Origin: a virus
Taxonomy: Duplodnaviria > Caudoviricetes
IMG/VR virus record: IMGVR_UViG_3300011438_000021
Location: 1-40,310 of that record
DNA: 40,310 bases
Reading direction: 5' to 3' (one strand)
Made by a program: the position numbers and the translations under genes. This document shows, one piece after another, positions 1,097 to 37,906 of the stretch (the first letter of the stretch is position 1; every line of letters begins with the position of its first letter). The notes below the pieces were generated by a model. It was not told the DNA's origin, did not search any database, and saw only the letters and a list, made by a program, of their open reading frames with translations.

Positions 1097-1407
1097 GCTA
1101 CGACGATTCACAACTGGTGCAGGCATTCCGGCAAGGGATGGCGCTCCGGCGCGAACTGGTCGCGAACGGGGCGACCCGCGCCGAGGCGGACCTTGCGCTG
1201 GCGAAGGTGCTGCGGGCGAACTGGCCCGTGCCGCCCATCGAGGACTGGCCTGACAAATACCGCCAGCCCCGGTGCGGTCAGTGCGACGGCTACGGCCTCG
1301 TGCTTCGCGAGGTGACGAACCGGCTGCGCCTCCGGGTGACCGAGGGCACCCCGTGCGCGTGCTGGGCGGGCGAGCGATACCGCCGCAAGACCACGGAGTC
1401 TTTATGA
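1093..1407 (+). CDS. Hypothetical protein with CxxC...CxC zinc motif
   Basis: ATGA overlap with upstream gene; CGQCDG and CAC motifs. Confidence 0.7.
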   Translation: MSYDDSQLVQAFRQGMALRRELVANGATRAEADLALAKVLRANWPVPPIEDWPDKYRQPRCGQCDGYGLVLREVTNRLRLRVTEGTPCACWAGERYRRKTTESL

Positions 1408-1733
1408 CCGAACCTGAGGTGGTCTGGCACGGCGCCCGCTGGCGCGACCTTGACGAGCGGCGGCACGCCCCGGCGCCCACGCCTGCCCCGCCGCGCCGGG
1501 TCGGGGAGAGTGCGACCGAGCGGGTCTTCGGCGCCCTGACGGGCGAGTGGGCGTCCGCCCCGGTCATCTCGGAGCGGGTCGGGCGGGCGCTGACCACGGT
1601 GCGCCCGATACTGGTCCGCCTCGCCGACGAGGGGCGCATCGAGCGCCTGCGGCGGGGCCACGACCCGACCAGCAGCGGCCTCGGGCCTCGCGAATACGGC
1701 TACCGCCTGCCGGTTGGAGGAGCACGACGTTGA
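1404..1733 (+). CDS. Winged-helix DNA-binding protein
   Basis: ATGA overlap; SAPVISERVGRALTTVRPILVRLADEGRIERL resembles a wHTH. Confidence 0.6.
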   Translation: MTEPEVVWHGARWRDLDERRHAPAPTPAPPRRVGESATERVFGALTGEWASAPVISERVGRALTTVRPILVRLADEGRIERLRRGHDPTSSGLGPREYGYRLPVGGARR

Positions 1734-1757
1734 CTGAGCACAGAAGGAGCCGACGCG

Positions 1758-2537
1758 ATGAGTGAACGATTCCAGCCTGTGCCGGTTCCACGCGGAGACG
1801 GGAGACACGACATTGGAGACGACATGCGTGCGGCGATCGTCCAACGGCTGATCGCGGATTGGAGTGCCGATCCCGATCTCACGCCAGAGAAGACGCGACA
1901 CTTAGCGATGTGGGCTGGTGCGTCCGTGCGGTCCCTCTTCCACGAGATGGGCACGTTGCGAGACATGGCACAGGAACACACACGCGACGCGGTGGAACCT
2001 CTGGGATCGAGCGCAGCCATCCCAAACGACGTATGGGAGACGTTGCAGCGACTGCCATTTGCGATCGCCCAATTGCGGCACGCCTATGCACAGTTAATTG
2101 GTGGGCATGTTCACGCGAAGCGGCAATTCGCTGACGGCCTTATCGCGCCGCAGATTCAAACACTAGAGCAGGTCGACGCCGCCTTAGCCCTCCTCCACCA
2201 GCAGCAGGCCGAGCCGTGCGTGTGGAGAGACATCGCCAGTGCGCCGAAGGATGGAACCGAACTACTCCTGCTCGAAGGCCGCAGGGTCGTCAGCGGTGCA
2301 TGGAATAGCGGCGGCGCGTTCCACATGCCGCATTGGATGGGCGGTAACTATCACCCGACTCACTGGATGTTCATCCCTTCTGACCATCTACAGGTTGCCA
2401 AGCCGTGTGTATGGAGAGAGGTGGATAGCCATTACGGATTATGGTCGCCTGCCTGTGTGAATAGCGCAGAGGCGCTTCATAACAGTTGGAAATATTGCCC
2501 CTACTGCTCTCACCCTCTACAGGTGCAGCGACCATGA
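1758..2537 (+). CDS. Cassette gene 1: multi-module protein with DUF551-like domain and C-terminal CPYC zinc ribbon
   Basis: WRDIASAPKDGT...PTHWMFIP (DUF551-like); PCVWR twice; ends CPYCSHPLQVQRP; SD GAAGGAG upstream. Confidence 0.75.
   Translation: MSERFQPVPVPRGDGRHDIGDDMRAAIVQRLIADWSADPDLTPEKTRHLAMWAGASVRSLFHEMGTLRDMAQEHTRDAVEPLGSSAAIPNDVWETLQRLPFAIAQLRHAYAQLIGGHVHAKRQFADGLIAPQIQTLEQVDAALALLHQQQAEPCVWRDIASAPKDGTELLLLEGRRVVSGAWNSGGAFHMPHWMGGNYHPTHWMFIPSDHLQVAKPCVWREVDSHYGLWSPACVNSAEALHNSWKYCPYCSHPLQVQRP
2509..2531 (+). repeat. Cassette junction motif CTCACCCTCTACAGGTGCAGCGA
   Basis: 23 bp identical to 9958-9980. Confidence 0.9.
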
Positions 2538-2824
2538 CCAAAAAACAGGCATACGAACGAATAGACCGAGGCGACCTGACGTGGGGGCATCTGAAGCACT
2601 ACATCGCCCAGTGCTTCGACCAAGATCGCGGTGCCGTCAGTGCGGTCAATCCAAACCTCACTCGCGGGCAAGCGCTGGACATACTGGCTACAGCGATTGA
2701 GCCTTGCGATGACAACGAACTATTGGTGTCACCGAGATTCACGGCAGCCCGAAACGCCAGAGCGAGTCTCATGGCTGTGAATGTGTTGCGCGAGACGCAT
2801 TTTCCTCTACAGGTGCAGCGATGA
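2534..2824 (+). CDS. Cassette gene 2, hypothetical (ends PLQVQR)
   Basis: ATG 2534 overlaps upstream stop; MTKKQAYERI...HFPLQVQR. Confidence 0.75.
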   Translation: MTKKQAYERIDRGDLTWGHLKHYIAQCFDQDRGAVSAVNPNLTRGQALDILATAIEPCDDNELLVSPRFTAARNARASLMAVNVLRETHFPLQVQR

Positions 2825-2825
2825 G
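2804..2825 (+). repeat. Cassette junction motif CCTCTACAGGTGCAGCGATGAG
   Basis: Matches the copies near 2513, 9963 and 10265. Confidence 0.9.
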
Positions 2826-3018
2826 CAGCTATCAATGGCGCGTTGGTGATGTGTTCACGAACGGCATCAATCGGTGGGTAGTAGATTCCGTCCAAGGTGA
2901 CAGGGCGGTCCTTCGTTCATGCTCATCGTCGTGGGCGACAACACGACTGCTGACGTTCAGTGAATGGCATGAAGGCCATCGATGGAAGCTGGAATCGGCA
3001 GAACAGGTGCAGCGGTGA
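2821..3018 (+). CDS. Cassette gene 3, small beta-rich hypothetical protein (ends EQVQR)
   Basis: Coupled ATGA start; 65 aa. Confidence 0.75.
   Translation: MSSYQWRVGDVFTNGINRWVVDSVQGDRAVLRSCSSSWATTRLLTFSEWHEGHRWKLESAEQVQR
3003..3018 (+). repeat. Cassette junction motif ACAGGTGCAGCGGTGA
   Basis: One mismatch to the consensus (GTG start). Confidence 0.85.
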
Positions 3019-3398
3019 CGAACAAAACACACTACGGTCGCCCACTCACGGCGAAAGTCGAAAACGGCCAACTCGTCATCGCTATCGGGGTACATGTGCT
3101 CGCGCACGCCGTCATCTATTCGGATTGGTCCCACGAATATGAAGAAAGCGGCGATCTGACGACGCATGGCGAATACATCCGCACTTTCGCCATTTCTGAC
3201 GCGCCACAGTTCGCGAAGGATGTCGTCAGCGCCATGCTGCACGAGCGCGAGGACGGCTCGACGCCCCTGTCCGACTTCATCGACAAGATATCACAGGCGG
3301 CGGTTGAGGACGGCTCGTTGGGCCTGTGTGAAGAAGACCATCGTATCGACCACGGGAAGACATCTGACTGCGAAACGTGGGCACAGGTGCAGCGATGA
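3015..3398 (+). CDS. Cassette gene 4, hypothetical (ends AQVQR)
   Basis: GTG start inside the junction motif; ...HEREDGSTPLSDFID... Confidence 0.75.
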   Translation: MTNKTHYGRPLTAKVENGQLVIAIGVHVLAHAVIYSDWSHEYEESGDLTTHGEYIRTFAISDAPQFAKDVVSAMLHEREDGSTPLSDFIDKISQAAVEDGSLGLCEEDHRIDHGKTSDCETWAQVQR

Positions 3399-3402
3399 GT
3401 GA
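3383..3402 (+). repeat. Cassette junction motif ACAGGTGCAGCGATGAGTGA
   Basis: 20 bp identical to 9968-9987. Confidence 0.9.
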
Positions 3403-3883
3403 CCAACTCACACGGTGGCGAAACACAACGCAACTGGCAACAGATACATGGGAAGTGCGGACAGTGCGGGCTGAGGAACCCCGCCACTGTGATGACCTCG
3501 TGTTGTTGGATGACGTGGAATCCGCGCTCACCACAGTCACCGAGCAGATCGCCACGAAGGACCGAAAGTTGTCCGAGATGACGGAGATGTACGCGGAAGC
3601 CGCCCGTGACGCGGAAGCCGCCGAACAGCGTCTCACCGAGGTCGAAGCCGAGCGGGACATGGTTGTTGAGCAACGGCAACGGTTCCGCGTACTGAGTGTT
3701 GAACTCAGTGACCAGATCGCCGCCCTCAAGGCCGAGCAGGAGCGGCTACGGGAGGCGCTGACTGGTCTACTCACTGCGTTGCCTGTGCTATGGGGCGATG
3801 CGGTGCGAGACGGACAGATCACCCTCTCGGTCAGTGAGCACCACATAGATGCCGCGCTGTCGCTCTCTGGGGACCACGCCTAG
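3395..3883 (+). CDS. Cassette gene 5, modular coiled-coil protein (Ead/Ea22-like architecture)
   Basis: Shares 117-bp and 39-bp DNA modules with 10282-10857. Confidence 0.75.
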   Translation: MSDQLTRWRNTTQLATDTWEVRTVRAEEPRHCDDLVLLDDVESALTTVTEQIATKDRKLSEMTEMYAEAARDAEAAEQRLTEVEAERDMVVEQRQRFRVLSVELSDQIAALKAEQERLREALTGLLTALPVLWGDAVRDGQITLSVSEHHIDAALSLSGDHA

Positions 3884-3884
3884 A

Positions 3885-4364
3885 ATGCCCCGCCGAGGCC
3901 CAAGGATGCCCCCAGAACGACGAACGCCGTCCCGGCGACCCTCTGCCTCACCCGGCGCCTCGACGTGCCCTGCGGCCTCGGAGCGCGTTGAGCAAAGTCA
4001 CATCGTCCAACTCGCCCGCAGCCTCGGCTGCGCGGTCACGGTGCTGGGGGTCACCCGGAAGGGCAGCGCCTGCCCGTCCTGCGGCGCGTTCGTCCGGGGC
4101 CACATGGGCACCCAGCAGACGCCCGGGATCGCCGACTTAGAAATCTGGATGCCGCCCCGAGGCGAGCGGCCTGCCGCCCTGCTCAAGTGGGAGGTCAAGG
4201 CCGAGGGCGGGCGCCTATCCCCCGAGCAGCGGGAGTATCGGGCGCTCTGCGAGGTGTCGGGCGTCCAGTGGGGCGTCGGCCCCTTCGCAGTGTTCGCGGC
4301 GTTCATGGCCGACTACGGGTTCCTGAAGCACGAGAACCTCCCCCACTATCGGCGCCCGACGTAA
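3885..4364 (+). CDS. VRR-NUC family (PD-(D/E)xK) nuclease / Holliday junction resolvase-like
   Basis: SERVEQSHI...PGIADL...WEVKAEGGRLSPEQ motif pattern; start uncertain. Confidence 0.75.
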   Translation: MPRRGPRMPPERRTPSRRPSASPGASTCPAASERVEQSHIVQLARSLGCAVTVLGVTRKGSACPSCGAFVRGHMGTQQTPGIADLEIWMPPRGERPAALLKWEVKAEGGRLSPEQREYRALCEVSGVQWGVGPFAVFAAFMADYGFLKHENLPHYRRPT

Positions 4365-4372
4365 ATCTCGAG

Positions 4373-4426
4373 CCGGTAGCGTTTCGGGCTTGACAGCCGA
4401 AAACGCTGCGGGTTAAGCTCCGGGGC
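4373..4426 (+). promoter_or_regulatory. Sigma70-like leaderless promoter with dyad operator
   Basis: TTGACA 4390-4395, 18 bp, TAAGCT 4414-4419, ATG at 4427; CCGGTAGCGTTT...AAACGCTGCGG imperfect inverted repeat around the -35. Confidence 0.8.
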
Positions 4427-4651
4427 ATGGCAAACACAACACTCGTCGTCGGCGACCGCGTGCGGTTCACCCAGAGTCTGAGCAATGGCGGCACGGCCAC
4501 ATGGACCGCCGTCGTCGTCCGGCTGAAGGCCAACGGCCTCGCGTCGGTGCGGCATCCGGCCCGCGTCCGCACGATTCCCTTCTCGCCGGTCCCTGCACCG
4601 GCCCTGTATCTGTATCGCGTCAGCGACCTGCTCCCAGCGGTGGTGCGCTAA
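4427..4651 (+). CDS. Small hypothetical protein (SH3-like beta fold possible)
   Basis: Leaderless start after the promoter; MANTTLVVGDRVRF. Confidence 0.75.
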   Translation: MANTTLVVGDRVRFTQSLSNGGTATWTAVVVRLKANGLASVRHPARVRTIPFSPVPAPALYLYRVSDLLPAVVR

Positions 4652-5081: not shown

Positions 5082-5111
5082 CGATTGTGTGTCGGGGTGT
5101 GCAGATCGTGC

Positions 5112-5146
5112 TTGTATCCCACAACGCTATCGGTTAATCTCTAGAC
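5112..5146 (+). promoter_or_regulatory. Sigma70-like leaderless promoter
   Basis: TTGTAT-17-TAATCT, ATG at 5147; spacer AACGCTATCGGT. Confidence 0.75.
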
Positions 5147-6247: not shown

Positions 6248-6477
6248 ACGCCAACCAGAAAGCCATCTACGGCGACCTGCCGACCACCGCCGACCACTGC
6301 CGCAGGCACTGCGTCTGCCCCGTCTGCGGCGAACGCTTCAGCGTGTCCCGCCACGGGCGCGGCCCCGCCCGCGCCGTCGCGAGCCTCCTGCGCGGCATGG
6401 TGATGCGGCACCTGCGCGAGCGCCATCCCGAAGAGTTGTCGGTTCCGCTCGATTCTGTGCGGGAGTGTGCAGAATAG
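6244..6477 (+). CDS. C2H2-like zinc finger protein
   Basis: CPVCGERF...RHLRERH. Confidence 0.65.
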   Translation: MNANQKAIYGDLPTTADHCRRHCVCPVCGERFSVSRHGRGPARAVASLLRGMVMRHLRERHPEELSVPLDSVRECAE

Positions 6478-6479
6478 GC

Positions 6480-6508
6480 TTGCACCCAGAACCGCTACGG
6501 GTTAATAT
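6480..6508 (+). promoter_or_regulatory. Sigma70-like promoter of the same family
   Basis: TTGCAC-17-TAATAT; spacer AACCGCTACGGGT. Confidence 0.7.
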
Positions 6509-6553
6509 CTATGAATCGGGGTTGGGCATATCGCCCGCCCGTTGGAGACGCCC

Positions 6554-7709: not shown

Positions 7710-8017
7710 GCGGCAAAGCCAAAGCCAAGGCCGCACTACCCACGCGCCCGGCGCGTCCGACCATCGGCGTCGAGCGCCGGGTCTGGACCGAGGCCGTCTG
7801 GTCCCAGTCCTTCACCGCCCTCCTGCGGGCCGCACAGGCCGGGCAGGACGGTCTGCGGGTGCTGGGCCTCACCGACGCGGATGGTGTCTCGCGCCGCGAC
7901 GACGGCACCGTCGAGGGCTGGGACCGCACCACAGGTGCCCCCATCCCCCTCACCGGCCTCGCGGTCCTGCGCCGAGGCGACCGCGACCTCGCCGTGCTCT
8001 ACGTGCAGGGCTGGTGA
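7706..8017 (+). CDS. Hypothetical protein
   Basis: GTGA coupling at both ends. Confidence 0.65.
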   Translation: MSGKAKAKAALPTRPARPTIGVERRVWTEAVWSQSFTALLRAAQAGQDGLRVLGLTDADGVSRRDDGTVEGWDRTTGAPIPLTGLAVLRRGDRDLAVLYVQGW

Positions 8018-8427
8018 CCGTGAGCGCACCCGACCTTCGCGCTCGTGCCCTCTGGCAGGCCTACGCGGCCCTTGGCGCTCGTATCGCCGAGGCCGTGGGG
8101 CCTGACCCCTTCGGCCCCCAGCCCGGCGACCGCGACCCGTGGACCGCCCTCGCCGACCTGACCATCCGGGGCTACCACGGCATCCACAGCCTGCACGGGC
8201 GCTACCCTGCTGGCACCGTCCTGACTGTGGGCCAACTCGCCGAGATCCCCGACGCGACCCTCCGCACCGTCCAGCACCTCGGGCGGGCGACCCTCAAGGA
8301 GATCCGCGAGGCCATCCGCCTCCACCGCCTCCACGCCTCCGCGCAGGCGAACGTGGACCCCGCGTCTGTGCTCCTCGCCGACGACCCGTCGCTGCTGATC
8401 AACATCCTCGCGGACGAGCCGGGATGA
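8014..8427 (+). CDS. Protein with RNA polymerase alpha C-terminal-domain-like (HhH) region
   Basis: TVGQLAEIPDATLRTVQHLGRATLKEIREAI matches the alphaCTD pattern TVxxL....LL...NLGxKSLxEI. Confidence 0.65.
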   Translation: MTVSAPDLRARALWQAYAALGARIAEAVGPDPFGPQPGDRDPWTALADLTIRGYHGIHSLHGRYPAGTVLTVGQLAEIPDATLRTVQHLGRATLKEIREAIRLHRLHASAQANVDPASVLLADDPSLLINILADEPG

Positions 8428-9592: not shown

Positions 9593-9778
9593 GTGGCTCC
9601 ACGCACCCCGAAGGCGGCGCCAGTCCTGCCCGGCCTCTACGATGGCTCTGCGCCCGCCGCTGGGCCGCTGGCGCCGGTCCGAGGGCCCGAGCCTCCCGCG
9701 CCTGCGCCGAAGGCCCCACAGGCCCCGCCAACGGCCTCGTCTGGCCGTCTCCGTGCAACGGGAGAGTCCCATGACTGA
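9593..9778 (+). CDS. Pro/Ala-rich hypothetical protein
   Basis: Fills the gap in the operon; low complexity. Confidence 0.35.
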   Translation: MAPRTPKAAPVLPGLYDGSAPAAGPLAPVRGPEPPAPAPKAPQAPPTASSGRLRATGESHD

Positions 9779-9953
9779 AACGCTCATCGCGCTCGTCGTG
9801 CTGCTCGCGGTCGCCGCGTTCGCCTACTGGGCCGGGCACAAGCTCGCCGAGGCCTTCGGCCTGCCTGCGCCCATCCTCGTCCTGTTCGACATCCTGATCG
9901 TGGCCGTGGTGCTGCTCTACCTGCTGCGCCTGTTCAAGCTGTCCCCGGTATGA
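9771..9953 (+). CDS. Two-TM small membrane protein (holin-like candidate)
   Basis: SD GGAGAG; MTETLIALVVLLAVAAFAYW...ILIVAVVLLYLL. Confidence 0.65.
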   Translation: MTETLIALVVLLAVAAFAYWAGHKLAEAFGLPAPILVLFDILIVAVVLLYLLRLFKLSPV

Positions 9954-9958
9954 CGCGC

Positions 9959-9985
9959 TCACCCTCTACAGGTGCAGCGATGAGT
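9959..9985 (+). repeat. Cassette junction, 27-bp direct repeat (left)
   Basis: TCACCCTCTACAGGTGCAGCGATGAGT, identical to 10261-10287. Confidence 0.95.
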
Positions 9986-10285
9986 GAGATACAAGACGCC
10001 ATTGCTCGACTGAACGAATCCACAGACAGCCTCGACCCTGTGGCGCATGTGAAGAAGCTGCAGGCCAAGCTCGCCGAGGTCGAAGCCGAGCGGGACGCCT
10101 ACAAGCGTGATTTCGGCGCAGAGTTGGACGGCAACGCCGCGATGCGGACACGTCTTGGTGCGCGTGAGTCGGAAACCATGTTCGCCTTTGTGGACCGATT
10201 AGCGGCCGAGCAGGAGCGTGACACGGAGGTGGAACCGTTTAAGTTCTGCCCCTATTGCGGTCACCCTCTACAGGTGCAGCGATGA
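9980..10285 (+). CDS. Cassette gene 6: coiled coil plus CPYC zinc ribbon (ends HPLQVQR)
   Basis: Flanked by 27-bp direct repeats; contains the LAEVEAERD module. Confidence 0.75.
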   Translation: MSEIQDAIARLNESTDSLDPVAHVKKLQAKLAEVEAERDAYKRDFGAELDGNAAMRTRLGARESETMFAFVDRLAAEQERDTEVEPFKFCPYCGHPLQVQR

Positions 10286-10287
10286 GT
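10261..10287 (+). repeat. Cassette junction, 27-bp direct repeat (right)
   Basis: Identical to 9959-9985. Confidence 0.95.
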
Positions 10288-10857
10288 CAGGACAATGTCG
10301 GCCTGATGGGAGCATTGCTTCTGACGCAACTCAAGGAAGAGTGCGAACAGCAGCACGCACGCGTGGAAGCCGCCGAACAGCGTCTCGCTGAGGTCGAAGC
10401 CGAGCGGGACAAGTGGAAGGATGCGGTCATCGACGCCCTCGTTGTGGACTGGTGCCTAAACGAGGAGACGGTCAACGATCCACACAAGGCGATTGCCGCT
10501 CTAATCGAATGGAACATCAAGATTCATGATGATCCAGCCGTTTCCAAGTCAGCGTATGACCGAGCAATGGAACTTGCATCCCTCAAGGCCGAGCAGGAGC
10601 GGCTACGGGAGGCGCTGAAGGCCACCACATTACAGGCCGCGAAGCAGGCCGAGCAGATCGCAGACAAGGACCGAAAATTGTCCGAGATGACAGAGATGTA
10701 CTCGGAAGCCGCCCGTGACGCGGAAGCCGCCGAGCAGCGTCTCGCCGAGGTCGAAGCCGAGCGGGACAAACTGGAAACGCAAGTCGAAGCACGCGATGAA
10801 TCCATCGCCCTCGCTAAGCGGTTATACGACGCCCTCAAGGCCGAGCGGGACAGGTGA
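10282..10857 (+). CDS. Cassette gene 7: modular coiled-coil protein
   Basis: EAAEQRLAEVEAERD twice; LKAEQERLREAL; ends in ACAGGTGATGA. Confidence 0.75.
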   Translation: MSQDNVGLMGALLLTQLKEECEQQHARVEAAEQRLAEVEAERDKWKDAVIDALVVDWCLNEETVNDPHKAIAALIEWNIKIHDDPAVSKSAYDRAMELASLKAEQERLREALKATTLQAAKQAEQIADKDRKLSEMTEMYSEAARDAEAAEQRLAEVEAERDKLETQVEARDESIALAKRLYDALKAERDR

Positions 10858-10988
10858 TGACCTGCCGCTGCGGGAAGCCTGCCTGCGTGGACGCCAAGGG
10901 CCTCGGCGTGTTCTGCCTGCACTGCTGGGTGAAGGCGAACTGGTCGCGGTTCATCCGCCAGCGCGAGCGTTTGACGACCGATGGCTAG
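10857..10988 (+). CDS. Small zinc-finger protein
   Basis: Not in the ORF track; MTCRCGKPAC...FCLHCW; TGATG coupling. Confidence 0.5.
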   Translation: MTCRCGKPACVDAKGLGVFCLHCWVKANWSRFIRQRERLTTDG

Positions 10989-15642: not shown

Positions 15643-18600
15643 ATGCCTCGCGACCCCTTCGCCGCGCCCGAGGCGTCGTTCAACATCGGCCTGTCATCGT
15701 CAGACCAGCCGCCGAGTGCGCTGGCCCCTGACAGCTTCTACGAGTCGCTCGCGGCCACGCTGTCACCCGACGAGGCCGACTTCCTGTCGAACCTCCCGCC
15801 CGACCTCGATCTGGACGACCCGGTGTTCGCCGCGCACCCGGTGCTCCAGAGCATCACCAGCAAACTCCAGTCGGCCCCGCCGTGGGCGCCGCAGGCCCCG
15901 GCCCCGCCTGACCCGCGTATCCCGACCGGCGGGGCGCTGGACGCCATCCGGGCGCTGGGCCTGCACGACCCGACGACATGGGCGCCGCCCCCGCGAGGCC
16001 CTCGCGATGTCGGCCCGCCCGCCCCGGCCCCGCTGGGCTTTCTCGCCAAGCCGTTTGAGGCGGCGATGGATGCGTTCCGGGGGTTCACCGGGCTGGGGGA
16101 GCAAGGGCCTCCGGGCCAGACGTGGACGAACGCGGGACAGGTGCTGCAGGCCGCGATGCCCCTCGCGGGGGCCGCGAAGCTGAAGGGGGCGCTCGCAGAG
16201 GTGCCGGGGCTGTTCTCGCGGGCCGAGCAGGTCGCGGCGAGCCTCCCGGCGAAGGGCGTGCATCCGAACAAGGCCCTGTCGCTGTTCAAGGCGGGCACGA
16301 GCGCCGAGGAACTGGCGTATCGCAAGGTGCCTGAGTTCCTCGCGAGCAAGGGCAACAGCCCGGTGACCGCTGCGGAGATGGCGGCGCACCTGACCGCGCA
16401 CCCGGCCCCGAGGCCGACCGTCACGCGGCTCGGCGGGCCGAACCCCGCCCGCCCGACGACGCTCCCCGAGGGCTACCGCATCAGCCCGCTCAACAATCGC
16501 ACAGACGAGTTCACGCTGGTCGGGCCTGACGGCGTCGGCACGAGACTCGGCGCGACGACGCCAGAAGAGGCGTTGGAGGAGGGCATCTCGTGGCTCGCCG
16601 AGGGTGCCCCTCGGACGACGGCCACGCACTATGCCTCGTATCAGGTGCCCGGCGGCGAGCGGTATCGGGAGAACCTCTTCACGCTGCCCGCGCCGACCGA
16701 GACGCGCTACAGGGTGAAGATCCACGACGAAAAGGGCGACCTGCAGTGGACAAGTGACGCCACGACGAGCGCCGAGCAGGTCACGGCCATCCGCGAGCGA
16801 TACGAGGGGGCTGGGTTCACCGTGAGCGTCGAGCCGGTGCAGCATCCGGTCGGGGGCTACCAGCCGCCGCACTTCGGCAAGGACGGGACAAACCTCGTCG
16901 TCCATACGCGCAGTAACGAGCGGGTGCTGCCGACCGGCGAGCGGGGCCACTACATCGAGGAGATCCAGAGCGACTGGCATCAGGCGGGGAAGGAGCAGGG
17001 GTATGCCCTGCCCTCCGAGGTCACCGCCCCGATGGACGCGGAATACCGGGCGCTCGTGCATAAAAACGCGGACGCGAGGGCGGCGGGGCGGGAACCCCTC
17101 CAAGCCGACATCGACCGCGCCCGGCAGTTAGAGGCCGCGCTGGAGCGGGCCGACAAAACGAAGATCCCCGACGCGCCCTTCAAGGAGACGTGGCCCGACC
17201 TCGCGCTGAAGCAGCACCTGCTCGACGCCGCGAACGACCCCAACGCGCAGTGGCTGGGGGTGTCCTCGGCAGACACCCAGATCGCCCGCTGGGGCAGTGA
17301 GCGCCTGCAGTGGAAACCCTCGCCGCGCCAGAGCGCCACGCTCGGGAAGCCCGCATGGACCGTGCAGTTTGAGACGCAGGTCGGCGGGGACGCGCTCGTC
17401 GGGCAGGGCATCGCGGATATGGGGGCCGAGGCGACCGCCCGGGGCCTGCAGAACGCCAACTATCGCCTCGTCACGAGTGAAGCCCAACTCGCGGACGTGA
17501 TGGGCGACAAGGGCAAGGCCGCGAAGGCGTGGAAGCGGATGCAGGCCAACCCGGACGGGGGCACCTACCTGCCCCGCGCCGAGGGGTTCCGGCAGCAGTA
17601 TGACCTGAACCTAAAAAACAAGCTGCAGGCGCTCGTGAAGCGGTTCGGGGGCACGGTGGAGCGGGCGCCGCTCGGGGGCACCTCGCGCCGCGCCATCGAG
17701 GCCGAGATGCAGGCGGTGCGGCAACAGATCGCGGACGTGCCGACCCCAGACTTATCCGGGTGGACGATTGTCGAGGAGTCAAGCAACCCCGGCACAGGAC
17801 AACGGTCGGTCGCCGTTCGGGACGCGCAGGGGGAGTGGCAGGGGTCACGGAGTGGCACACGCGGCACGGACGCGGAGATCCTGCAGGACTGGGCCGCGTC
17901 GATGCGCGAACAGGAGCAGAAGGCGCTCACTCGCGACCTGAACCGTTTGGCGCATGACTACAACAAAGCCGGGGAGGCAGGCGGCGAGGGCTGGGTCGTC
18001 CGCCTGACCGACGCGATGAAGGCCCAGATCCGACAGGCCGGGTTCCCGCTGATGGCAGCGGCGCCGATTGGCCTCGCGGTCAGCCACGAGCCGCAGAAGC
18101 CCGCGCCCGCTGCGGACCCGGCGGTGCTGGCGAAGCTGGCCGAGCAGTTCCCGGTGTTCGCGGCCACGCTCCGCAGCCATCCGCCGCCCGCCGCCGCGCA
18201 GCCGCCGAGGCCGATGCCGAGTCACCAGCCCGCGACCCCGCCGCCGCTCGCGTTCCTCGCTGAGCCGTTTGAGGCGGGCATGGACGCCCTGCGCGGGTTC
18301 ACAGGCCTCGGCGAGCAGGGGCCTGCGGGCCAGACATGGACGAACGCCGGGCAGGTGTTGGGGGCCGCGCTGCCGGTCATGGGCGGCGTGATGGGGGGAG
18401 GCCGCAAGCTCGCCACGGCCCTCCGCGAGGGCGCAGCGGCGCGTCCCACGTATGCGGAGGCGATGGCCCCCGAGGCCTTCGACCGCCTCGTGCAGCAGTT
18501 CGGCCTCAATCCGCAGGCGGCAGGCCGCGCCGCCTACGGCGAGCGCATCCTGCCCCGCCTCTCACTGGCCGAGGCCGAGGCGGCGGGCCTGTGGCACCCG

Positions 18601-19611
18601 GTCGGCGATTACAAGCGGCTGACCGTGCCGGTCGAGGGGATGCCGTTTCGGTCAGCCCCTGACCCCGCCGTCACGATGGCCCCGTCGCGCACGCTGACCC
18701 CCGCCGACCTTGAAGGCGCCGCCCTGATTCCCGCGCCCGGCGACCGCACGGCGGCGGGCACGATTGTCTCGGAGATCGGCGGGCGTCGGATCGACCCGGT
18801 GCATACCGAAGGCGGCGTGGACTTCATGCGGACGCACGACCAGTTCGGGGCGGCGTGGGCGTCCAAGCAGGGGGTCGTCCGCCGCCTCCAGAAGCACATT
18901 CGGCAGGCCTCGGAGGCCTCCCAGAAGGCGGGCGGGACCGGCGAGGTCTATCTGGTGTATATGCCCCTCTCGCATGGCGCGACCGACTTCTCGGCGATGA
19001 TGTCCGACGCCATCCTCGCGCAGGTGCAGGCAGGCGGCGTGACCGAGCGGGCGTCCAAGGCCTTCGACGCCGTGCTGCGCCGCACCCGCCCCGAGTGGAA
19101 AGGGCTGTATCACCCCGACGCCCGGGCGCAACTGATGAGCAATGGGGAACTGCGCCACGCCTTCACCGACACCATCTCGCTAGACAAGTTCACGGCGGGG
19201 CAGGGGTTCCCTGACCTCCCCACGACCCGGGCGGCGATCACGCGACCCGACCTGATGGACACCCCGGTCCTGCATGGCGGGCAAGGGGTCGCGAAGGTCA
19301 GCGGCGAGATTATCGAGAACCCCGCGAGGCCGCACACCACCTACGACACGCAACTGGCCGGGGAGTATGCGGGCGAGTTCGCCGCCCCGCTGCCCTTGGA
19401 TCAGATGTTCGCCGATTGGGTGAAGGAGCGGCGGGCGCTGGGGATGCCCACGCAGGGCGACCCGCGCTCCTTCATGCTGGGGAAGCCCGTGCAGGTCGCG
19501 ACCCCCAAATGGATCAAGCGCAACGAGAAATACCTCAAAGCCCTCGGCGCGGCGGTGGTCGCGGTCCCGGCGGCGGTCGCGTTGGCGCCGGGCGATGAGG
19601 GGCAGGACTGA
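15643..19611 (+). CDS. Large two-unit (polyvalent-type) protein, probably virion-delivered
   Basis: 1322 aa; duplicated FLAxPFEA...FTGLGEQGP.GQTWTNAGQVL module; YQVPGGERYRE / EEIQSDWHQ / PDAPFK domain. Confidence 0.7.
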   Translation: MPRDPFAAPEASFNIGLSSSDQPPSALAPDSFYESLAATLSPDEADFLSNLPPDLDLDDPVFAAHPVLQSITSKLQSAPPWAPQAPAPPDPRIPTGGALDAIRALGLHDPTTWAPPPRGPRDVGPPAPAPLGFLAKPFEAAMDAFRGFTGLGEQGPPGQTWTNAGQVLQAAMPLAGAAKLKGALAEVPGLFSRAEQVAASLPAKGVHPNKALSLFKAGTSAEELAYRKVPEFLASKGNSPVTAAEMAAHLTAHPAPRPTVTRLGGPNPARPTTLPEGYRISPLNNRTDEFTLVGPDGVGTRLGATTPEEALEEGISWLAEGAPRTTATHYASYQVPGGERYRENLFTLPAPTETRYRVKIHDEKGDLQWTSDATTSAEQVTAIRERYEGAGFTVSVEPVQHPVGGYQPPHFGKDGTNLVVHTRSNERVLPTGERGHYIEEIQSDWHQAGKEQGYALPSEVTAPMDAEYRALVHKNADARAAGREPLQADIDRARQLEAALERADKTKIPDAPFKETWPDLALKQHLLDAANDPNAQWLGVSSADTQIARWGSERLQWKPSPRQSATLGKPAWTVQFETQVGGDALVGQGIADMGAEATARGLQNANYRLVTSEAQLADVMGDKGKAAKAWKRMQANPDGGTYLPRAEGFRQQYDLNLKNKLQALVKRFGGTVERAPLGGTSRRAIEAEMQAVRQQIADVPTPDLSGWTIVEESSNPGTGQRSVAVRDAQGEWQGSRSGTRGTDAEILQDWAASMREQEQKALTRDLNRLAHDYNKAGEAGGEGWVVRLTDAMKAQIRQAGFPLMAAAPIGLAVSHEPQKPAPAADPAVLAKLAEQFPVFAATLRSHPPPAAAQPPRPMPSHQPATPPPLAFLAEPFEAGMDALRGFTGLGEQGPAGQTWTNAGQVLGAALPVMGGVMGGGRKLATALREGAAARPTYAEAMAPEAFDRLVQQFGLNPQAAGRAAYGERILPRLSLAEAEAAGLWHPVGDYKRLTVPVEGMPFRSAPDPAVTMAPSRTLTPADLEGAALIPAPGDRTAAGTIVSEIGGRRIDPVHTEGGVDFMRTHDQFGAAWASKQGVVRRLQKHIRQASEASQKAGGTGEVYLVYMPLSHGATDFSAMMSDAILAQVQAGGVTERASKAFDAVLRRTRPEWKGLYHPDARAQLMSNGELRHAFTDTISLDKFTAGQGFPDLPTTRAAITRPDLMDTPVLHGGQGVAKVSGEIIENPARPHTTYDTQLAGEYAGEFAAPLPLDQMFADWVKERRALGMPTQGDPRSFMLGKPVQVATPKWIKRNEKYLKALGAAVVAVPAAVALAPGDEGQD

Positions 19612-22240: not shown

Positions 22241-22657
22241 ATGGGTCCATCGCTCACGCCTGCCCGGTCGTTTCCCCACTTCAACTCGCTCATCTATCAG
22301 GCCAGCACCCCGGCGGTCGTCAACGCCGCCGTGAACGCGACCTACACCCCGGCGCAGGTGTTGACCGGCATGATCTTCCGCGACCCGCAGGGCGGCGTGA
22401 AGACCGACACCCTGCCGACCGCTCGCGACCTCGCGCAGGGCCTGCCGGGGGTCGCCGTAGGCACCACGCTCTCCCTGCTGGTCCGCAACGAAGGCGGCGC
22501 GACCGTGACGATTGCGGTCGGCGCAGGCGGCACGGCCAGCGGGTCGCCGCTCACCGTGCTTGTGGCGAACAATCGGGTCTTCCGCATCCGTTTCACCAAC
22601 GTGACGCCGGGCAGCGAGGCCTACACGCTCTACACGTTCGGCACCGTCGCGTTTTAA
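22241..22657 (+). CDS. Capsid decoration-like protein, paralog A
   Basis: Follows the coat gene; 138 aa; paralog of 22714-23130. Confidence 0.75.
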   Translation: MGPSLTPARSFPHFNSLIYQASTPAVVNAAVNATYTPAQVLTGMIFRDPQGGVKTDTLPTARDLAQGLPGVAVGTTLSLLVRNEGGATVTIAVGAGGTASGSPLTVLVANNRVFRIRFTNVTPGSEAYTLYTFGTVAF

Positions 22658-22668
22658 CCTCGGTTACC

Positions 22669-22709
22669 GCCTCGCGCCTCGGGAGAGGAGTGCGGGCACA
22701 GGAGTTCGC
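22669..22709 (+). promoter_or_regulatory. Conserved 5'-leader hairpin plus RBS, copy 2
   Basis: GCCTCGCGC-CTC-GGGA-GAG-GA-GTGCGGGC-ACAGGAGTTCGC. Confidence 0.6.
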
Positions 22710-22713
22710 TACT

Positions 22714-23130
22714 ATGCCGTCCCTGACCCCGGCTCGTGGGTTCCCACACTTCAACAGCCTCGTCTACCCGCAGACGACCCCCGCCGTCATCACGACGGCG
22801 GGCGCGGTCACCTACACCGCGCAGCAGCTACTGGGCGGCATGATCCTGCGCGACCCGGCGGGCGCCAGCCGCAGTGACACGCTGCCGAGCGCCGCCCTGC
22901 TGGTCGCGGCCATCCCCGGTATCGCGGTCGCGCAGTTTTTCGACGTGATCATCCGCAACGACGCGGGGGGTGCGTTCACGATTACGCTGTTGGCGGGCGC
23001 GGGCGTCACCCTCGGCGGGACCGCCACGATCGCCCAGAGCACCAGCAAGGCGCTCCGCATCCGGTTTACCAACGTCACGCCGGGCAGCGAGGCCTACACG
23101 GCCTTCTCGCTCGGGTCGCTGGTATTTTGA
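22714..23130 (+). CDS. Capsid decoration-like protein, paralog B
   Basis: 138 aa; shares SLTPAR.FPHFNSL, RDP.G, DTLP and RIRFTNVTPGSEAYT with paralog A. Confidence 0.75.
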   Translation: MPSLTPARGFPHFNSLVYPQTTPAVITTAGAVTYTAQQLLGGMILRDPAGASRSDTLPSAALLVAAIPGIAVAQFFDVIIRNDAGGAFTITLLAGAGVTLGGTATIAQSTSKALRIRFTNVTPGSEAYTAFSLGSLVF

Positions 23131-25841: not shown

Positions 25842-26317
25842 TGGCCGTCGAGAACCTCGCCCCGCCCCCGCTGCGCTCGCGCCTCGTGGACAAAACGGGG
25901 CTGATGACCCGCGAGTTCAACAACTGGCTGCGCGGGCTGACCAGTGCCGTGAACGCCTCGGCGACCCAGTCGGTGCAGCCGATTGTGCTCAGTGACCTCA
26001 GTGCCGCGTTGGGCACCTCGGTGCTGCTGCCCTTCGCCCCGGCAGGCGTGTATCGCCTGTCTTACACGGTGCGGATCAGCCAAGCCGCGACGGTGTCGAG
26101 CAGCGTGACCGTGCGGTTCCACTGGTTCGCCGGGGGCCTCTCGCAGACCTTCAGTGCGCCCGCGCTCACCACCAACTCCACGACGACGCCGCAGTCGGAC
26201 GCCATCCTCGTGCAGGTGGACCCCGGGACGCTGATCAGCTACTCGACGCTCTACGACTCGGTCGGCGCAACCGTGATGACCTACGACCTCGCGGTGACCT
26301 GCGAGGCGCTCGGATGA
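25841..26317 (+). CDS. Tail accessory protein
   Basis: TGATG coupling; PPLRSRLVDKTGLMTREFNNW N-terminus common after gp10-like genes. Confidence 0.65.
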   Translation: MAVENLAPPPLRSRLVDKTGLMTREFNNWLRGLTSAVNASATQSVQPIVLSDLSAALGTSVLLPFAPAGVYRLSYTVRISQAATVSSSVTVRFHWFAGGLSQTFSAPALTTNSTTTPQSDAILVQVDPGTLISYSTLYDSVGATVMTYDLAVTCEALG

Positions 26318-26772
26318 TCCGGCCCGCCACGCTCGCCGACGTGCCGCGCCTCGTGGAGATGGGCGTGTCCCTGCGGCGCGAGCCGGTGCTGCGGGACCAC
26401 CTGCAGGAGAACCCCACGGCACTGGAGGCCGTGGCACACTCGCTGGTGACCGGCGAGGCGTCCGACCTGCTCGTGGCCGAGCGAGACGGGGGCGTGGTCG
26501 GGATGCTCGGCCTGCTGGCGTATTCGCACCCGATGAGCGGGCAGCGCGTGGCGAGTGAGATCGCCTTCTGGGTGGACCCGGCGCACCGGGGCGCGGGCGT
26601 GGCGCTGCTGCGAGCCGGGGAGGCGTGGGCGCGGGCGCACGAGTGCCCCGAGATGGAAATGGGGTCGCCCAACGAGCGGGTGGACCGCCTCTACGAGCGC
26701 CTCGGCTACGTGGCGGTCGAACGGCGGTATCGGAAGATGGTGGGCGACGACGAGGTCGGGAGGGTAGCGTAA
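26314..26772 (+). CDS. GNAT-family N-acetyltransferase
   Basis: MIRPATLADVP...FWVDPAHRG...LYERLGY. Confidence 0.85.
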   Translation: MIRPATLADVPRLVEMGVSLRREPVLRDHLQENPTALEAVAHSLVTGEASDLLVAERDGGVVGMLGLLAYSHPMSGQRVASEIAFWVDPAHRGAGVALLRAGEAWARAHECPEMEMGSPNERVDRLYERLGYVAVERRYRKMVGDDEVGRVA

Positions 26773-28513: not shown

Positions 28514-28876
28514 ATGAACCCCTACGCCGGGTCAATTGGGGAACTGCTCGCGAACGCGGGGCGGATCAAAGCGCAGCGCATCCGCACGGCGGCGAACCTT
28601 GCTGCGGCCCAACAGGCGCGGCTCGCGGAGATTGCCGGAGACAGCGTCCTGCAGCGGAGCCAGAGCGGGTTCAACCCCTTTGAGGCCCTCGCGGGGTCGC
28701 TCGGGGACTACCTGCGGGCCAAACGCTTCGACACCCCGGTGAAGACCACCGCGACCGCCGGGACGGGGTATCCGCTGCAGCCGAGCATCGCCCCGGAGCG
28801 GGCCTACACGGGACAGGCGACGTTCGACCAGCTCTACCGCATCGGCGCCCTGAACCCGACGACTGTGCCCTACTGA
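28514..28876 (+). CDS. Short paralog of the N-terminus of the next ejection protein
   Basis: YAGSIGELLANAGRIKAQRIRTAANL versus YTGTIADLMANAGRIQAQRIREAANL. Confidence 0.7.
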   Translation: MNPYAGSIGELLANAGRIKAQRIRTAANLAAAQQARLAEIAGDSVLQRSQSGFNPFEALAGSLGDYLRAKRFDTPVKTTATAGTGYPLQPSIAPERAYTGQATFDQLYRIGALNPTTVPY

Positions 28877-28886
28877 GAGGCGAGAC

Positions 28887-32588: not shown

Positions 32589-33939
32589 AACGCTCATGCC
32601 AGCGCCCTACCTGACGCTGGAGGACATCGACGGGGACGCCCTGACCGGCGGCACCGTCACGTTCCTTGACACCGGCACGGCCATCCTCGCGACCGTCTAC
32701 GCCGACGCCAACGGGCTGGTCATCTCGGCCAACCCGCTGACGGTGGACGCCGCCGGGCGCTACTCGGTGTGGCTCACGCCGTATCAGGTGGTCGATGTTG
32801 AATACCGGGACCAGTTCGGCACCCTGATCAAGACCGTGCCCGGGGTGCAGGCCATCCCGGGGGCGGGCGGGAACGTGGACATCCCCGGGATACTGGGCGA
32901 TGGCCCCAACATCGGCGCGTGGTATTTTCTCTCGACCGGCGAGCTTGGGGTCGCGGGCCAGTGGCACCTGACGCAGTCGGGGTATCCCTCCAGCCAAGTG
33001 CAGACGGTCGGCGTCCTCATCGCGTCGGAACCAAGCGGCGCGGCGACCTTTCGTATCGCGGGGAAACTGACCGGCCTGACCGGCCTCGTCACCGGGCGGG
33101 TCTACTACCTCGCCGACGCGTATGGGCAGGTCAGCCTGACGCCCGGTCTTTACGGGCGCAAGGTCGGCCAAGCGGACACGCCCACGAGCCTCGTGTTGTG
33201 GCCGAACCCGCCGCCGCTCGTGGACCCGGAGATGGCGACCTACCACGTCGGCGGAACCGTGCTGCAATTGGTGCCGCCCGCTGACACGGTCCTGTTGGAG
33301 AACAACTACGCTGGCCTCGTCGTGCATGGCATCAAAGCGGGCTACCACGGGCAGCGAGTGCAGTTCATCAACGGCGGGACGGCTGGGCAATCTGATTTTC
33401 TCGACAACAGCCCGTCTGCGGCGGCGCCCGACCGGCTGTTCAACTTTGTGGGGTCGGCCCCCACGTCGCTGGCGATTGGCGGGATCTCTCGCGGCACACT
33501 GACCTACGTCTATGACGTCGTGGTCCCCGGCTGGCGGCTGGTCGCGCATGAGCAAGGCGGCTGGATCGTGCCCGCGTTTACTGGGGCGGACTACTCGGCG
33601 GTGGTCCCCGCGATCTGGGTGGTCAACAGCGGGAACGTGTCGCGCTGCGCCTATTACCTGCGCGGGCGGGCGTTACAGGTGCAACTCTTAGTGACCGGCT
33701 CAAACTTAAGCGGGGCCTCCAGCACGATCCTTTCGCGCAAGATCCCCGGCGGTTACACGGCAGGCGCCGAGATTGTGTTCGGCGCGGCGGCGTCGTATCA
33801 GTTAGGCGGCGCCTACGGGTTAGCGGTCTGGTCGAACACCAGCACCACGATCACGTTCCGCCACGACCTCACGGGCGGCTCGGTGTGGCCGACCGGGGAG
33901 ATTTGGGTCGGGGCCGACATGACCATCGGGGTGGATTGA
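32575..33939 (+). CDS. Tail fibre/spike protein, paralog 1
   Basis: N-terminal head-binding-type domain GGTVTFLDTGT...YADANG...NPLTVDAAGR. Confidence 0.8.
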   Translation: MPTSKTLMPAPYLTLEDIDGDALTGGTVTFLDTGTAILATVYADANGLVISANPLTVDAAGRYSVWLTPYQVVDVEYRDQFGTLIKTVPGVQAIPGAGGNVDIPGILGDGPNIGAWYFLSTGELGVAGQWHLTQSGYPSSQVQTVGVLIASEPSGAATFRIAGKLTGLTGLVTGRVYYLADAYGQVSLTPGLYGRKVGQADTPTSLVLWPNPPPLVDPEMATYHVGGTVLQLVPPADTVLLENNYAGLVVHGIKAGYHGQRVQFINGGTAGQSDFLDNSPSAAAPDRLFNFVGSAPTSLAIGGISRGTLTYVYDVVVPGWRLVAHEQGGWIVPAFTGADYSAVVPAIWVVNSGNVSRCAYYLRGRALQVQLLVTGSNLSGASSTILSRKIPGGYTAGAEIVFGAAASYQLGGAYGLAVWSNTSTTITFRHDLTGGSVWPTGEIWVGADMTIGVD

Positions 33940-35922: not shown

Positions 35923-35954
35923 GGGCGCCGAGTGCCGGGGGGTGCTCGGCGCCC
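35923..35954 (+). terminator. Strong hairpin ending the late operon (short U tract)
   Basis: GGGCGCCGAGTGCC-GGGG-GGTGCTCGGCGCCC followed by ACTT. Confidence 0.55.
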
Positions 35955-35956
35955 AC

Positions 35957-35991
35957 TTGCACCCGGCACCGCTATCGGTTAAGCTCTCCCG
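35957..35991 (+). promoter_or_regulatory. Sigma70-like leaderless promoter
   Basis: TTGCAC-17-TAAGCT, ATG at 35992; spacer CACCGCTATCGGT. Confidence 0.75.
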
Positions 35992-36454: not shown

Positions 36455-36699
36455 TGGGGCGCCCGTTGGCGATCCGCCGAGGCCCGCTCGCCAGCCAGAT
36501 CGCGCTCGGGCTGCGCCGGAACATCGTCTGCATCGACCTCGCGAAAGCGATTTACGCGGCGCACGCCGCCTATCGCGGGGCGCTCGCGCCGAACTTCTAC
36601 GACCTCTCGCCCGCCGAGCGCCACGTCTGGGTGAATCGAGCGAAGGCCACGATCCTCGACGTCCCGAACACCCTCACACTGGAAGGCACCCCCCGATGA
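36454..36699 (+). CDS. Hypothetical protein
   Basis: TGATG coupling; LAKAIY...FYDLSPAERHVW. Confidence 0.65.
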   Translation: MGRPLAIRRGPLASQIALGLRRNIVCIDLAKAIYAAHAAYRGALAPNFYDLSPAERHVWVNRAKATILDVPNTLTLEGTPR

Positions 36700-37487
36700 C
36701 CACGTCACCAACCGTCGCCGAACTGTTCGCCGCCCTCGCCGAGGCGCAGGGCCATTTCCCGTCCGCCGCGAAGGACGCCGTCAACCCGCACTTCGGGCAC
36801 AACTACGCCACGCTGGCGGGCCACGTTGAAGCGGCCAAGCCGCACCTGAAAGCGCAGGGCCTCGCGGTCCTGCAGGACGTGGTGACCAACACCGCCGCCG
36901 AGGGCGTGGACATCACGACCCGGATCGTCCACCGCTCGGGCGAGTGGGTGGAGTTCGGCCCGCTCTTCGTTCCGGCGTCGAAGTGGGACGCGCAGGGCCT
37001 CGGCAGCGCCATCACCTACGGGCGCCGCTACCAGTTCGGGGCGGCGGTCGGCACCGTGCCCGACGACGACGATGCAAACGACGCCGTGAAGACCACCCCG
37101 GTCAAGGCCGCGCCGGTCCCGGCGACTGTGGTGGACACGCGCACGGGCGCCGAGGTGCCCTTCGCCGAGGCCTCCCTCCCCCCGGCGGGCTACTTCTACG
37201 TCGCGAACTACAAGCTCTCGTCTGGGGGCTGGCACGAGGCCTCCCTGCTGGCCTACGACGCGCAGGGCGGCGCCCTGAAGGTCAGCACCAAGACCAAGAC
37301 CGGCGAGGCCCTAAAGGCCGCGCAGGACGCGGGCCTGCCCGTCAAGGTGACGACCCGTCCGAAGGGCGACTCGGTCGGCGAGGCTTACCTTGACTCGTGC
37401 GTGGCCTACAAGGCGCCGAAGGCCAAGCTGGCCCCGGTCCCAGCGCCCGAGCTACCGCCGCTGACCGACAGCGACATTCCGTTCTGA
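36696..37487 (+). CDS. erf: ERF-family ssDNA annealing protein with SSB-like acidic C-tail
   Basis: KDAVNPHF..NYATL, HRSGEW, QGLGSAITYGRRY, DDDDAN; ends DSDIPF. Confidence 0.9.
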   Translation: MTTSPTVAELFAALAEAQGHFPSAAKDAVNPHFGHNYATLAGHVEAAKPHLKAQGLAVLQDVVTNTAAEGVDITTRIVHRSGEWVEFGPLFVPASKWDAQGLGSAITYGRRYQFGAAVGTVPDDDDANDAVKTTPVKAAPVPATVVDTRTGAEVPFAEASLPPAGYFYVANYKLSSGGWHEASLLAYDAQGGALKVSTKTKTGEALKAAQDAGLPVKVTTRPKGDSVGEAYLDSCVAYKAPKAKLAPVPAPELPPLTDSDIPF

Positions 37488-37906
37488 TGGCGACCCCGGT
37501 GTTCCACGGGCGGGTCATCGAGGGCAAGCTCGCCCTCGACCCCGCCGAGGCGGCTGACCGGGCCTCCTACCTGCAGCGCCTGACCGGCAAGGCCGTCGAG
37601 GTCGTGGTGCGTCCGAAGACCCGCAAGCGCAGCCTCGACCAGAATGCGTGGCTCTGGGGCGTGGCCTACGACATCCTCGGCGAGCATATGGGCTACGACA
37701 CCCACGAGCGGGACGGCCTGCACTACGCCCTGCTCGCGGAGTGTTTCGGCGTCTACCACGACCAACGCTTCGGCATCACGGTGCCCCGGGTGTCGAGCAG
37801 CAAGATGACCACCCGCGAGTTCAGCGACTACATGGAGTGGCTGGTGCGCTGGGCAGCGGTCGAGCAGCAGGTCGTCATCCCGCTGCCGGATGACGCCGAG
37901 GCCTGA
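37487..37906 (+). CDS. NinB/Orf-like recombination accessory protein
   Basis: KRSLDQNAWLWG...SSSKMTTREFSDYME...IPLP. Confidence 0.7.
   Translation: MATPVFHGRVIEGKLALDPAEAADRASYLQRLTGKAVEVVVRPKTRKRSLDQNAWLWGVAYDILGEHMGYDTHERDGLHYALLAECFGVYHDQRFGITVPRVSSSKMTTREFSDYMEWLVRWAAVEQQVVIPLPDDAEA

Follow-up and report, generated by a model that had tools for sequence, protein, structure and literature searches.

What is a short sequence doing that recurs, letter for letter, between one small gene and the next in a phage genome? The question is raised by IMGVR_UViG_3300011438_000021, a complete virus record of 40,310 bp with direct terminal repeats (its whole length is here called the window), in which five plus-strand open reading frames (ORFs; 1758-2537, 2534-2824, 2821-3018, 3015-3398 and 3395-3883, genes being named by their first position) abut in a block at 1755-3883, as a preliminary description of this DNA had noted. 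The junction between them, D, was read there as the fixed seam of an integron-like cassette array. We find that D is one of five short linkers (A to E) in two islands of low guanine-plus-cytosine (GC) content, that relatives differ between the linkers, the linker DNA being unchanged down to silent sites, and that the swapped unit is often a protein module, not a gene cassette, because the linkers other than D cut inside genes. Crossovers of general short-homology recombination, carried out by the phage's own ERF and NinB, probably take place at the linkers. The system is not an integron and, on present evidence, not a new recombination system. Its bearer is an uncultured sediment and soil phage without an integrase match, for which family searches of the genome identified a P22-like portal and coat, a large terminase, ERF and NinB; sequence near-identical to the window is found in runs from soil and from freshwater sediment.

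The core of D is the exact 12-mer ACAGGTGCAGCG, present in six copies, all on the plus strand: at 2519, 2809, 3003 and 3383 in the block, where the junctions had been located before, and at 9968 and 10270 in a second island absent from the earlier account. None lies outside the islands, and the terminal hexamer repeat excepted this is the genome's commonest 12-mer. At up to three mismatches the 16-mer of D has eight matches in the window against 0.81 expected, a count that none of 100 shuffles reaches. The full junction is less constant than it had been made out to be: the core is exact in all four copies of the block, but the left part CACCCTCT stands before copy 1 only, with CCTCT before copy 2 and nothing before copies 3 and 4, and the stretch common to the copies spans 12 to 36 bp. 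Copy 3 uses GTGA, and the GCGATGAGTGA described at the array's left edge (1755) does recur at 3392 and 9977 as the junction's right half, over 11 nucleotides (nt), a match that is weak alone.

Nor does every junction supply the QVQR ending. Three of the four in the block give QVQR and a stop, but at copy 1 an ACC inserted before ATGA makes gene 1758 end in QVQRP, and the fifth gene ends in GDHA. At 9968 the copy is in frame with the upstream gene and behind its stop, so that QVQR is untranslated there, although the core stays perfect. The QVQRP of the first copy and the position of the 9968 copy lead us to regard D as a ribosome-site and stop-start junction, not a peptide signal. QVQR is the ending of four proteins of the window and of three relatives, which might suggest a functional C-terminal tag, such as a degron or targeting signal, added to unrelated proteins by selection. 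We give this idea almost no credence, in view of the two exceptions just named and of the fixed codons, which contain AGGTG five bases before the start (a Shine-Dalgarno (SD)-like element); moreover, QVQR closes only 1 of 147 further homologs, which assigns the tail to the junction and not to the DUF551-like domain described below. In viral contigs the 16-mer was met as a single gene junction, one match each, in 35 unrelated contigs, none linked by BLAST to the islands; a 20-nt pattern of D found no locus there, and among 17 whole viral records none has more than two copies of the 12-mer at up to one mismatch. The AGGTG and ATGA junction itself is a generic phage coupling signal, and what is unusual about D is its exact repetition.

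Self-comparison of the two islands brought out further repeats inside genes, linkers A and B, and the relatives revealed C and E. Linker A (AAEQRLxEVEAERD) has four copies of up to 48 bp; B is identical at 39 of 39 nt to 10580-10618 and at 37 of 37 to a relative, L076, in which C (QAEPCVWR) is identical at 33 of 33; E reads LTTxTEQIA. All four lie in frame inside coiled-coil, DUF551-like and zinc-ribbon proteins, in the loose order start-E-A-B-C-D. The joined genes, described as unrelated, are so only in part, as 3395, 9980 and 10282 have linkers and a 120-bp module in common (92% identical between 3395 and 10282), and 1758 and 9980 a zinc-ribbon end. A, B and C have a core, GCCGAGC, in common, which occurs 11 times in the 3024 bp of the islands and 20 times in the other 37,286 bp, and it is at this core that half-and-half hybrid linkers join (B-left/A-right at 10830-10852, C-left/E-right at 10643, a partial B/A at 10204); a further hybrid fuses D-like and C-like parts (Table 1). 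Four of the six distinct A-to-B slots are multiples of seven residues in length (28, 28, 28 and 63, the other two being of 40; P ~0.005, post hoc). At degenerate codons for the same residue, the silent sites of linker copies are identical in 93 of 95 cases against 38.4 expected from island codon use (A 37 of 38, B 24 of 24, C 9 of 9 and D 23 of 24, with 15.0, 9.1, 3.9 and 10.4 expected), which excludes peptide selection alone.

What lies between the linkers varies from one relative to the next. A metagenome scan returned 22 stretches, two being the window itself, 19 having no further likeness and one, L076, being a true relative. This independent contig of 1150 nt has the linker order A-B-C-D-A, with nucleotide identities of 29/30 (A), 41/41 (B), 33/33 (C) and 23/23 (D), unrelated sequence between the linkers and a different DUF551 allele. 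On its reverse strand (340-620) the linker string is joined in frame, at A, to a GC-rich zinc-finger N-terminus in another gene neighbourhood, which suggests that the module pool attaches to other genes too. Protein searches added five close mosaics. P0003 corresponds to gene 3395 but carries the island-2 module and one more, a new module of 28 residues, between A and B; P0004 combines the A-B slot of gene 3395 with the C-to-D part of gene 1758; and P0018 unites residues 1-66 of P0004 with the final 57 of P0015, which overlap in linker A, so that P0004, P0015 and P0018 appear to form a recombinant triangle at A. In P0020, which ends in QVQR, C runs directly into the zinc ribbon without the DUF551 between the two PCVWR copies, and the distant P0017 has the gene-9980 module in common from ERD to AAE only. 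We note that P0004, P0018 and P0020 all start IQNPMN and then diverge, a possible sixth linker that the window does not contain.

Public runs, which consist of assembled contigs and in which joins with a side shorter than 30 nt were disregarded, point the same way. In the sediment run X7, record 22 carries a B-to-C join at the DNA level (shorter side 111 nt), record 25 has 204 foreign bases between D and A, record 26 has foreign sequence behind E, and a new gene start stands behind D with a loose end at 2531. Run X2 holds foreign sequence on either side of C. All eight of its listed contigs match island 1 without any differing letter, and one contig joins the KLETQVESRD module to the A alleles of island 1, the arrangement of P0003. 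The cover of 3660-3722 in X2 is low, in agreement with a swapped module, although we do not count this as evidence. Two allele positions suggest that this contig comes from island 1, and a near-identical soil phage would appear to carry another module behind A. Might the mosaic relatives instead be assembly chimeras formed at repeated linkers, the repeats of the window being static? The source run's assembly graph does break at A and B (X1 records 1-8), and the mosaic proteins come from short contigs. This is highly improbable all the same, since relatives hold modules that the window lacks (L076, P0015, P0020 and X7 records 24-26), the B-to-C join recurs in L076, P0004 and X7 with its own sequence and alleles, the matches at D and C in X7 and X2 are shorter than 31 nt, and runs of other studies show the order of the window unbroken (X2 9700-10618, X6 10174-10732).

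Alternatively, the linkers might mark the exchanges without driving them, as relics of local duplication kept by selection on the peptide, with its coiled-coil heptads and CxxC start, and on the ribosome site, next to rare illegitimate recombination of which only the in-frame products survive. Passages of PMC3233612 present this as the standard alternative model, A and B encode ordinary coiled-coil heptads, D is a generic SD plus ATGA of the kind found once in each of the 35 contigs, and the island edges, described next, fall at no fixed place in a linker. We nevertheless think it unlikely, because selection on the peptide does not fix synonymous sites, because D is perfect at 9968 where QVQR is untranslated, and because the same module alleles recur in several combinations, joined inside the linkers.

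The islands themselves stand out from their surroundings. Island 1, the 1758-3883 block, has a GC content of 0.587 against 0.689 in the rest of the genome, in keeping with the earlier remark that it is richer in AT than its flanks, and its genes have a third-position GC of 0.58-0.71 against 0.84-0.94 in the flanking genes. Island 2 (9955-10857; GC 0.595) holds two D copies and two more genes, 9980 and 10282. Island 1 starts at GCGATG after a backbone ribosome site (AGAAGGAG), its right end lying one base short of the VRR-NUC start; island 2 is flanked by a 5-bp direct repeat, ATGAC, at 9950 and 10857, and with the island taken out gene 9771 would have its stop overlapping the following start as ATGA. 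The codon before the stop of gene 9771 is GTA, which serves none of 200 valines in six backbone genes. Judging by these edges, which have no fixed position within a linker, both islands look inserted at backbone start codons, and it is likely that they came from a lower-GC phage pool and landed at backbone gene starts.

A further rival is a site-specific system of the integron or shufflon kind, in which an unrecognised recombinase of phage or host would cut the DNA at the D core and/or at GCCGAGC to add or remove cassettes. The 12-mer is invariant, the hybrid linkers join at a single 7-bp core, a 5-bp direct repeat flanks island 2, and many genes of the phage are without any family match. We consider such a system very unlikely, however. 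The complete genome has no match to PF00589 (tyrosine recombinase; control matches 14 of 14), to PF00239 (resolvase) or to PF00078 (reverse transcriptase), which agrees with the preliminary description as regards tyrosine and serine recombinases. The weak dyad that it had pointed out in the core does not translate into a significant hairpin, the top strand of the six junctions folding no better than shuffles (z -1.3 to +0.5); no local inverted repeat figures among the 25 longest repeats listed in the window, and all six D sites are direct repeats, none inverted. There are, besides, five linkers of differing lengths and not one site, the common sequence around D varies in length, and GCCGAGC is simply a pair of Ala-Glu codons also found elsewhere in the genome. 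With no recombinase match and no hairpin, and with D only one of five linkers of which the others cut inside genes, the integron-like array is a reading we do not retain.

General short-homology recombination through ERF and NinB, on the other hand, had also been suggested earlier; both proteins are encoded, and we judge this route likely. A crossover between like linkers would leave the frame intact at A, B, C and E and preserve translational coupling at D, most products thus presumably being expressed, and repeated exchange would keep the linkers uniform. The long linkers (23-48 bp) would be within the range of a Rad52-like annealase; according to passages of PMC3945230, Erf can use homologies that are short and diverged, and Red-beta needs a segment of at least 23-27 bp, a length that suits A, B, C and the long copies of D. 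The bare 12-bp copies of D and the joins at the 7-bp core would represent rarer microhomology events, and selection would tend to hold the phase of the coiled coil. The phenomenon is module shuffling at boundary sequences, extended to the sub-gene level, by a mechanism that we infer.

Several points weigh against the linkers as crossover points for ERF. What is seen are products of recombination and not the event, and the joins are at contig level only, the mosaic proteins coming from contigs of 539-1655 nt whose samples may overlap. D copies 3 and 4 have only 12-17 bp in common with the others, below the 23-27 bp just cited. ERF may be a bystander, as host RecA or replication slippage could do the same. 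D is a seam of content exchange in L076 and run X7, where other genes stand before or behind it, but genes 2534, 2821 and 3015 were met in window order only (runs X2 and X3). The identity at silent sites also fits recent duplication, and linker copies are not independent; duplication, for its part, leaves unrelated sequence beside identical linkers unexplained. No empty site was found for either island, and among 23 loci of terminase relatives (38-66% identical) none has the islands or their flanking genes. A viral-contig scan with genes 3395 and 3015 gave no related locus and no close relative. The same viral contigs gave no locus for the B pattern, and the ten loci for C and one for A were put down to chance; a genome scan with B gave 32 stretches whose likeness is limited to the pattern and a few bases. 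Among GenBank phages there are only weak partial matches.

Going further, one could speculate that the islands, together with those of relatives, amount to a recombinase-free combinatorial library of proteins with the grammar start-E-A-B-C-D, in which linkers are selected as joints for recombination, the two islands of one genome swap modules, modules of heptad size keep the coiled-coil scaffold in phase, and a living population holds many isogenic variants, different in the displayed modules alone, for interaction with hosts or defences. We offer this tentatively and regard it as doubtful.

As for the encoded proteins, their sequences suggest mosaics of coiled coil, DUF551-like module and zinc ribbon, built like the lambdoid Ea22/EaA proteins. 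Genes 3395 and 10282 have generic coiled-coil matches only (Pfam, PADLOC, NCBIfam), and the architecture of N-region, coiled coil and variable C-domain is read from such matches and from the modular parse. The DUF551-like module of the window has no match to PF04448 or any other Pfam family. The module in the same slot of L076 passes the PF04448 cut-off (24.4 > 22), and 19 of the 30 top homologs scanned for the module behind C match DUF551, 12 of the 30 above the cut-off. The module is modelled with confidence for residues 1-60, and its model matches viral ones labelled DUF551 at E 1e-3 and weaker; a fold search with it gave no PDB match, and the best VIA match (Z 3.2, to Tudor/SH3-like barrels) was not informative. 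For gene 2534 the best atlas match (0.82) was treated as a lead only. Homologs of gene 3015 at ~35% identity occur in 83 records of Vibrio ICP1-type phages, over residues 9-104 only. Ead_Ea22 (PF13935) has no match in the window's island proteins, P0003, P0004 or P0015, and a weak one only in the distant P0011. The islands probably encode accessory proteins of the Ea22/EaA kind, with a coiled coil that presents a changing set of small domains.

How does this arrangement compare with known systems? Integron cassette arrays consist of tandem small ORFs on one strand, mostly of unknown function and separated by a repeat, which is also how the block looks. Here, however, there is no IntI and no attC hairpin (top strand folded), the repeat is translated and carries a ribosome site, and most seams are intragenic. 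A shufflon, or a diversifier based on a serine recombinase or a reverse transcriptase, differs in that here neither resolvase nor reverse transcriptase is found and the sites are direct, not inverted. Boundary-sequence mosaicism, the original lambdoid papers on which are reportedly those of Susskind and Botstein and of Clark et al., is alike in its short conserved DNA at gene boundaries, in homologous recombination as the proposed route and in the switch between homology and non-homology at the sequence, seen here at D in L076 and X7 and at A, B, C and E in L076, P0003, P0004, P0015, P0018, P0020, X2 and X7 (genes 2534, 2821 and 3015 excepted). What differs is the six copies in one genome, the two distant islands, the four intragenic linkers and the hybrids, and the bearer, an uncultured sediment and soil phage with P22-like portal and coat and no integrase. 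This boundary ('linker') model of phage modules, an old one, is stated in passages of PMC3233612 and PMC3974807, according to the former with support only in some genomes.

According to parts of PMC10834534, the Ea22 proteins of lambda and Stx phages are mosaics of an N-region, a coiled coil and unrelated C-domains that include a portable DUF551. The likeness appears to extend to the short variable N-region, the central coiled coil, the exchangeable C-domains and the optional internal segments; unlike those proteins, the window's lack a PF13935 match, have a DUF551-like module below Pfam detection, and are encoded beside a VRR-NUC gene upstream of the terminase and not in the exo-xis region, and DNA linkers are not described in those passages. 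Promoter early stem-loop (PeSL) cassettes of T4-type phages, as presented in parts of PMC2839356, are short repeats between non-essential genes that mediate shuffling by recombination; PeSLs are intergenic promoter-terminator hairpins, whereas here 1400-4500 holds no promoter-like and one terminator-like site (1.7 expected), which is no excess, no hairpin is seen and the linkers are translated. The backbone has a second set of repeated gene leaders, PeSL-like in position: a promoter-like leader (TTGACA/TTGCAC ... GGTTAA ... GGACATGGCAAAC) at 4383-4437, 5082-5143, 6450-6511, 35927-35988, 36178-36232 and 37929-37983, which precedes several early genes, some starting MANT. In the gp38 adhesin of T-even phages, passages of PMC3157838 describe conserved in-frame glycine-rich motifs that separate interchangeable segments, as the linkers do, but in one essential gene with a fixed number of slots; here the genes are non-essential and several, and the slot number varies. 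In the literature searched, which left most subscription papers outside, we found no account of such a multi-linker in-frame set.

Table 1. Features of the two islands and candidate recombination genes, in window coordinates
Position	Strand	Feature
1755..1765	+	Right half of junction D; island 1 left edge, after backbone ribosome site AGAAGGAG
1758..2537	+	Gene 1758, 259 aa: unique N-module, linker C, DUF551-like module, second C-like linker, zinc ribbon, D; ends QVQRP
2204..2236	+	Linker C (QAEPCVWRDI); module breakpoint in P0004, P0020, X7 record 22 and an X2 contig
2223..2378	+	DUF551-like module (W-x-I-x-x-APKDG ... PTHWM); Pfam match only in near homologs (PF04448)
2385..2419	+	Hybrid linker, D-like left (CATCTACAGGT) and C-like right (AKPCVWRE), in frame
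2509..2537	+	Junction D copy 1; core 2519-2530; 3 extra bases before ATGA
2534..2824	+	Gene 2534, 96 aa, no family; ends QVQR
2804..2824	+	Junction D copy 2
2821..3018	+	Gene 2821, 65 aa, no family; ends QVQR
3003..3018	+	Junction D copy 3 (GTGA)
3015..3398	+	Gene 3015, 127 aa, PHROG families of unknown function, homologs over residues 9-108 only; ends QVQR
3383..3398	+	Junction D copy 4
3395..3883	+	Gene 3395, 162 aa: N-module, E, module, A, 28-residue slot, B, tail module; coiled-coil-like
3527..3553	+	Linker E (LTTVTEQIA); then foreign sequence in P0004, P0018 and X7 record 26
3613..3659	+	Linker A (AAEQRLTEVEAERD)
3660..3722	+	Exchangeable A-B module (MVVEQ...); other content in P0003, P0015, P0018 and L076
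3723..3761	+	Linker B (ALKAEQERLREAL)
9950..9954	+	ATGAC, island 2 left edge, contains gene 9771 stop; repeated at 10857-10861
9958..9983	+	Junction D copy 5, untranslated, island 2 left edge
9980..10285	+	Gene 9980, 101 aa: N-module, A (10067-10096), 40-residue slot, partial B/A hybrid (10204-10224), half zinc ribbon, D copy 6 (10261-10285); ends QVQR
10282..10857	+	Gene 10282, 191 aa: A (10365-10411), B (10580-10622), C-left/E-right (10643-10661), A (10722-10769), B-left/A-right (10830-10852)
10857..10861	+	ATGAC, island 2 right edge, start of next backbone gene
36696..37487	+	ERF single-strand annealing protein (PF04404, E 5e-19); candidate recombinase
37487..37906	+	NinB/Orf recombination mediator (PF05772, phrog_72)

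Elsewhere in the genome, the terminal repeat of 58 bp (1-58 and 40253-40310) sits in a GCAGAA tandem repeat (an Ala-Glu run) of an origin-spanning gene, for which reason the repeat number at the genome join may be uncertain. Tail-fibre-like paralogues stand in tandem at 32575-33939 and 33885-35315, with a common 300-bp start that is 82% identical and no Pfam match. Further paralogous repeats lie at 22340-23114, 28521-28972 and 16022-18391 (spacing ~470, 373 and 2214 bp), in the region of structural and injected proteins, where a 1322-residue protein behind the portal (15643-19611), with an internal repeat and no Pfam match, may be a multi-domain injected protein. There is also a clear GNAT acetyltransferase among the tail genes (26314-26772), a weak match to the RNA polymerase alpha C-terminal domain at 8014-8427 (E 9e-4) and a weak DarA C-terminal match at 37972-38196.

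In one 40-kb phage and a few relatives, then, are united fixed silent sites, a recombinant triangle at one linker, a near-isogenic variant with another module and hybrid linkers. Because the linkers are short, defined and carried by a genome with an ERF annealase, the boundary model becomes directly testable by recoding them. Such genes cluster and annotate badly, which is a warning to those who classify them, and they illustrate how new multi-domain accessory proteins would be made in frame.

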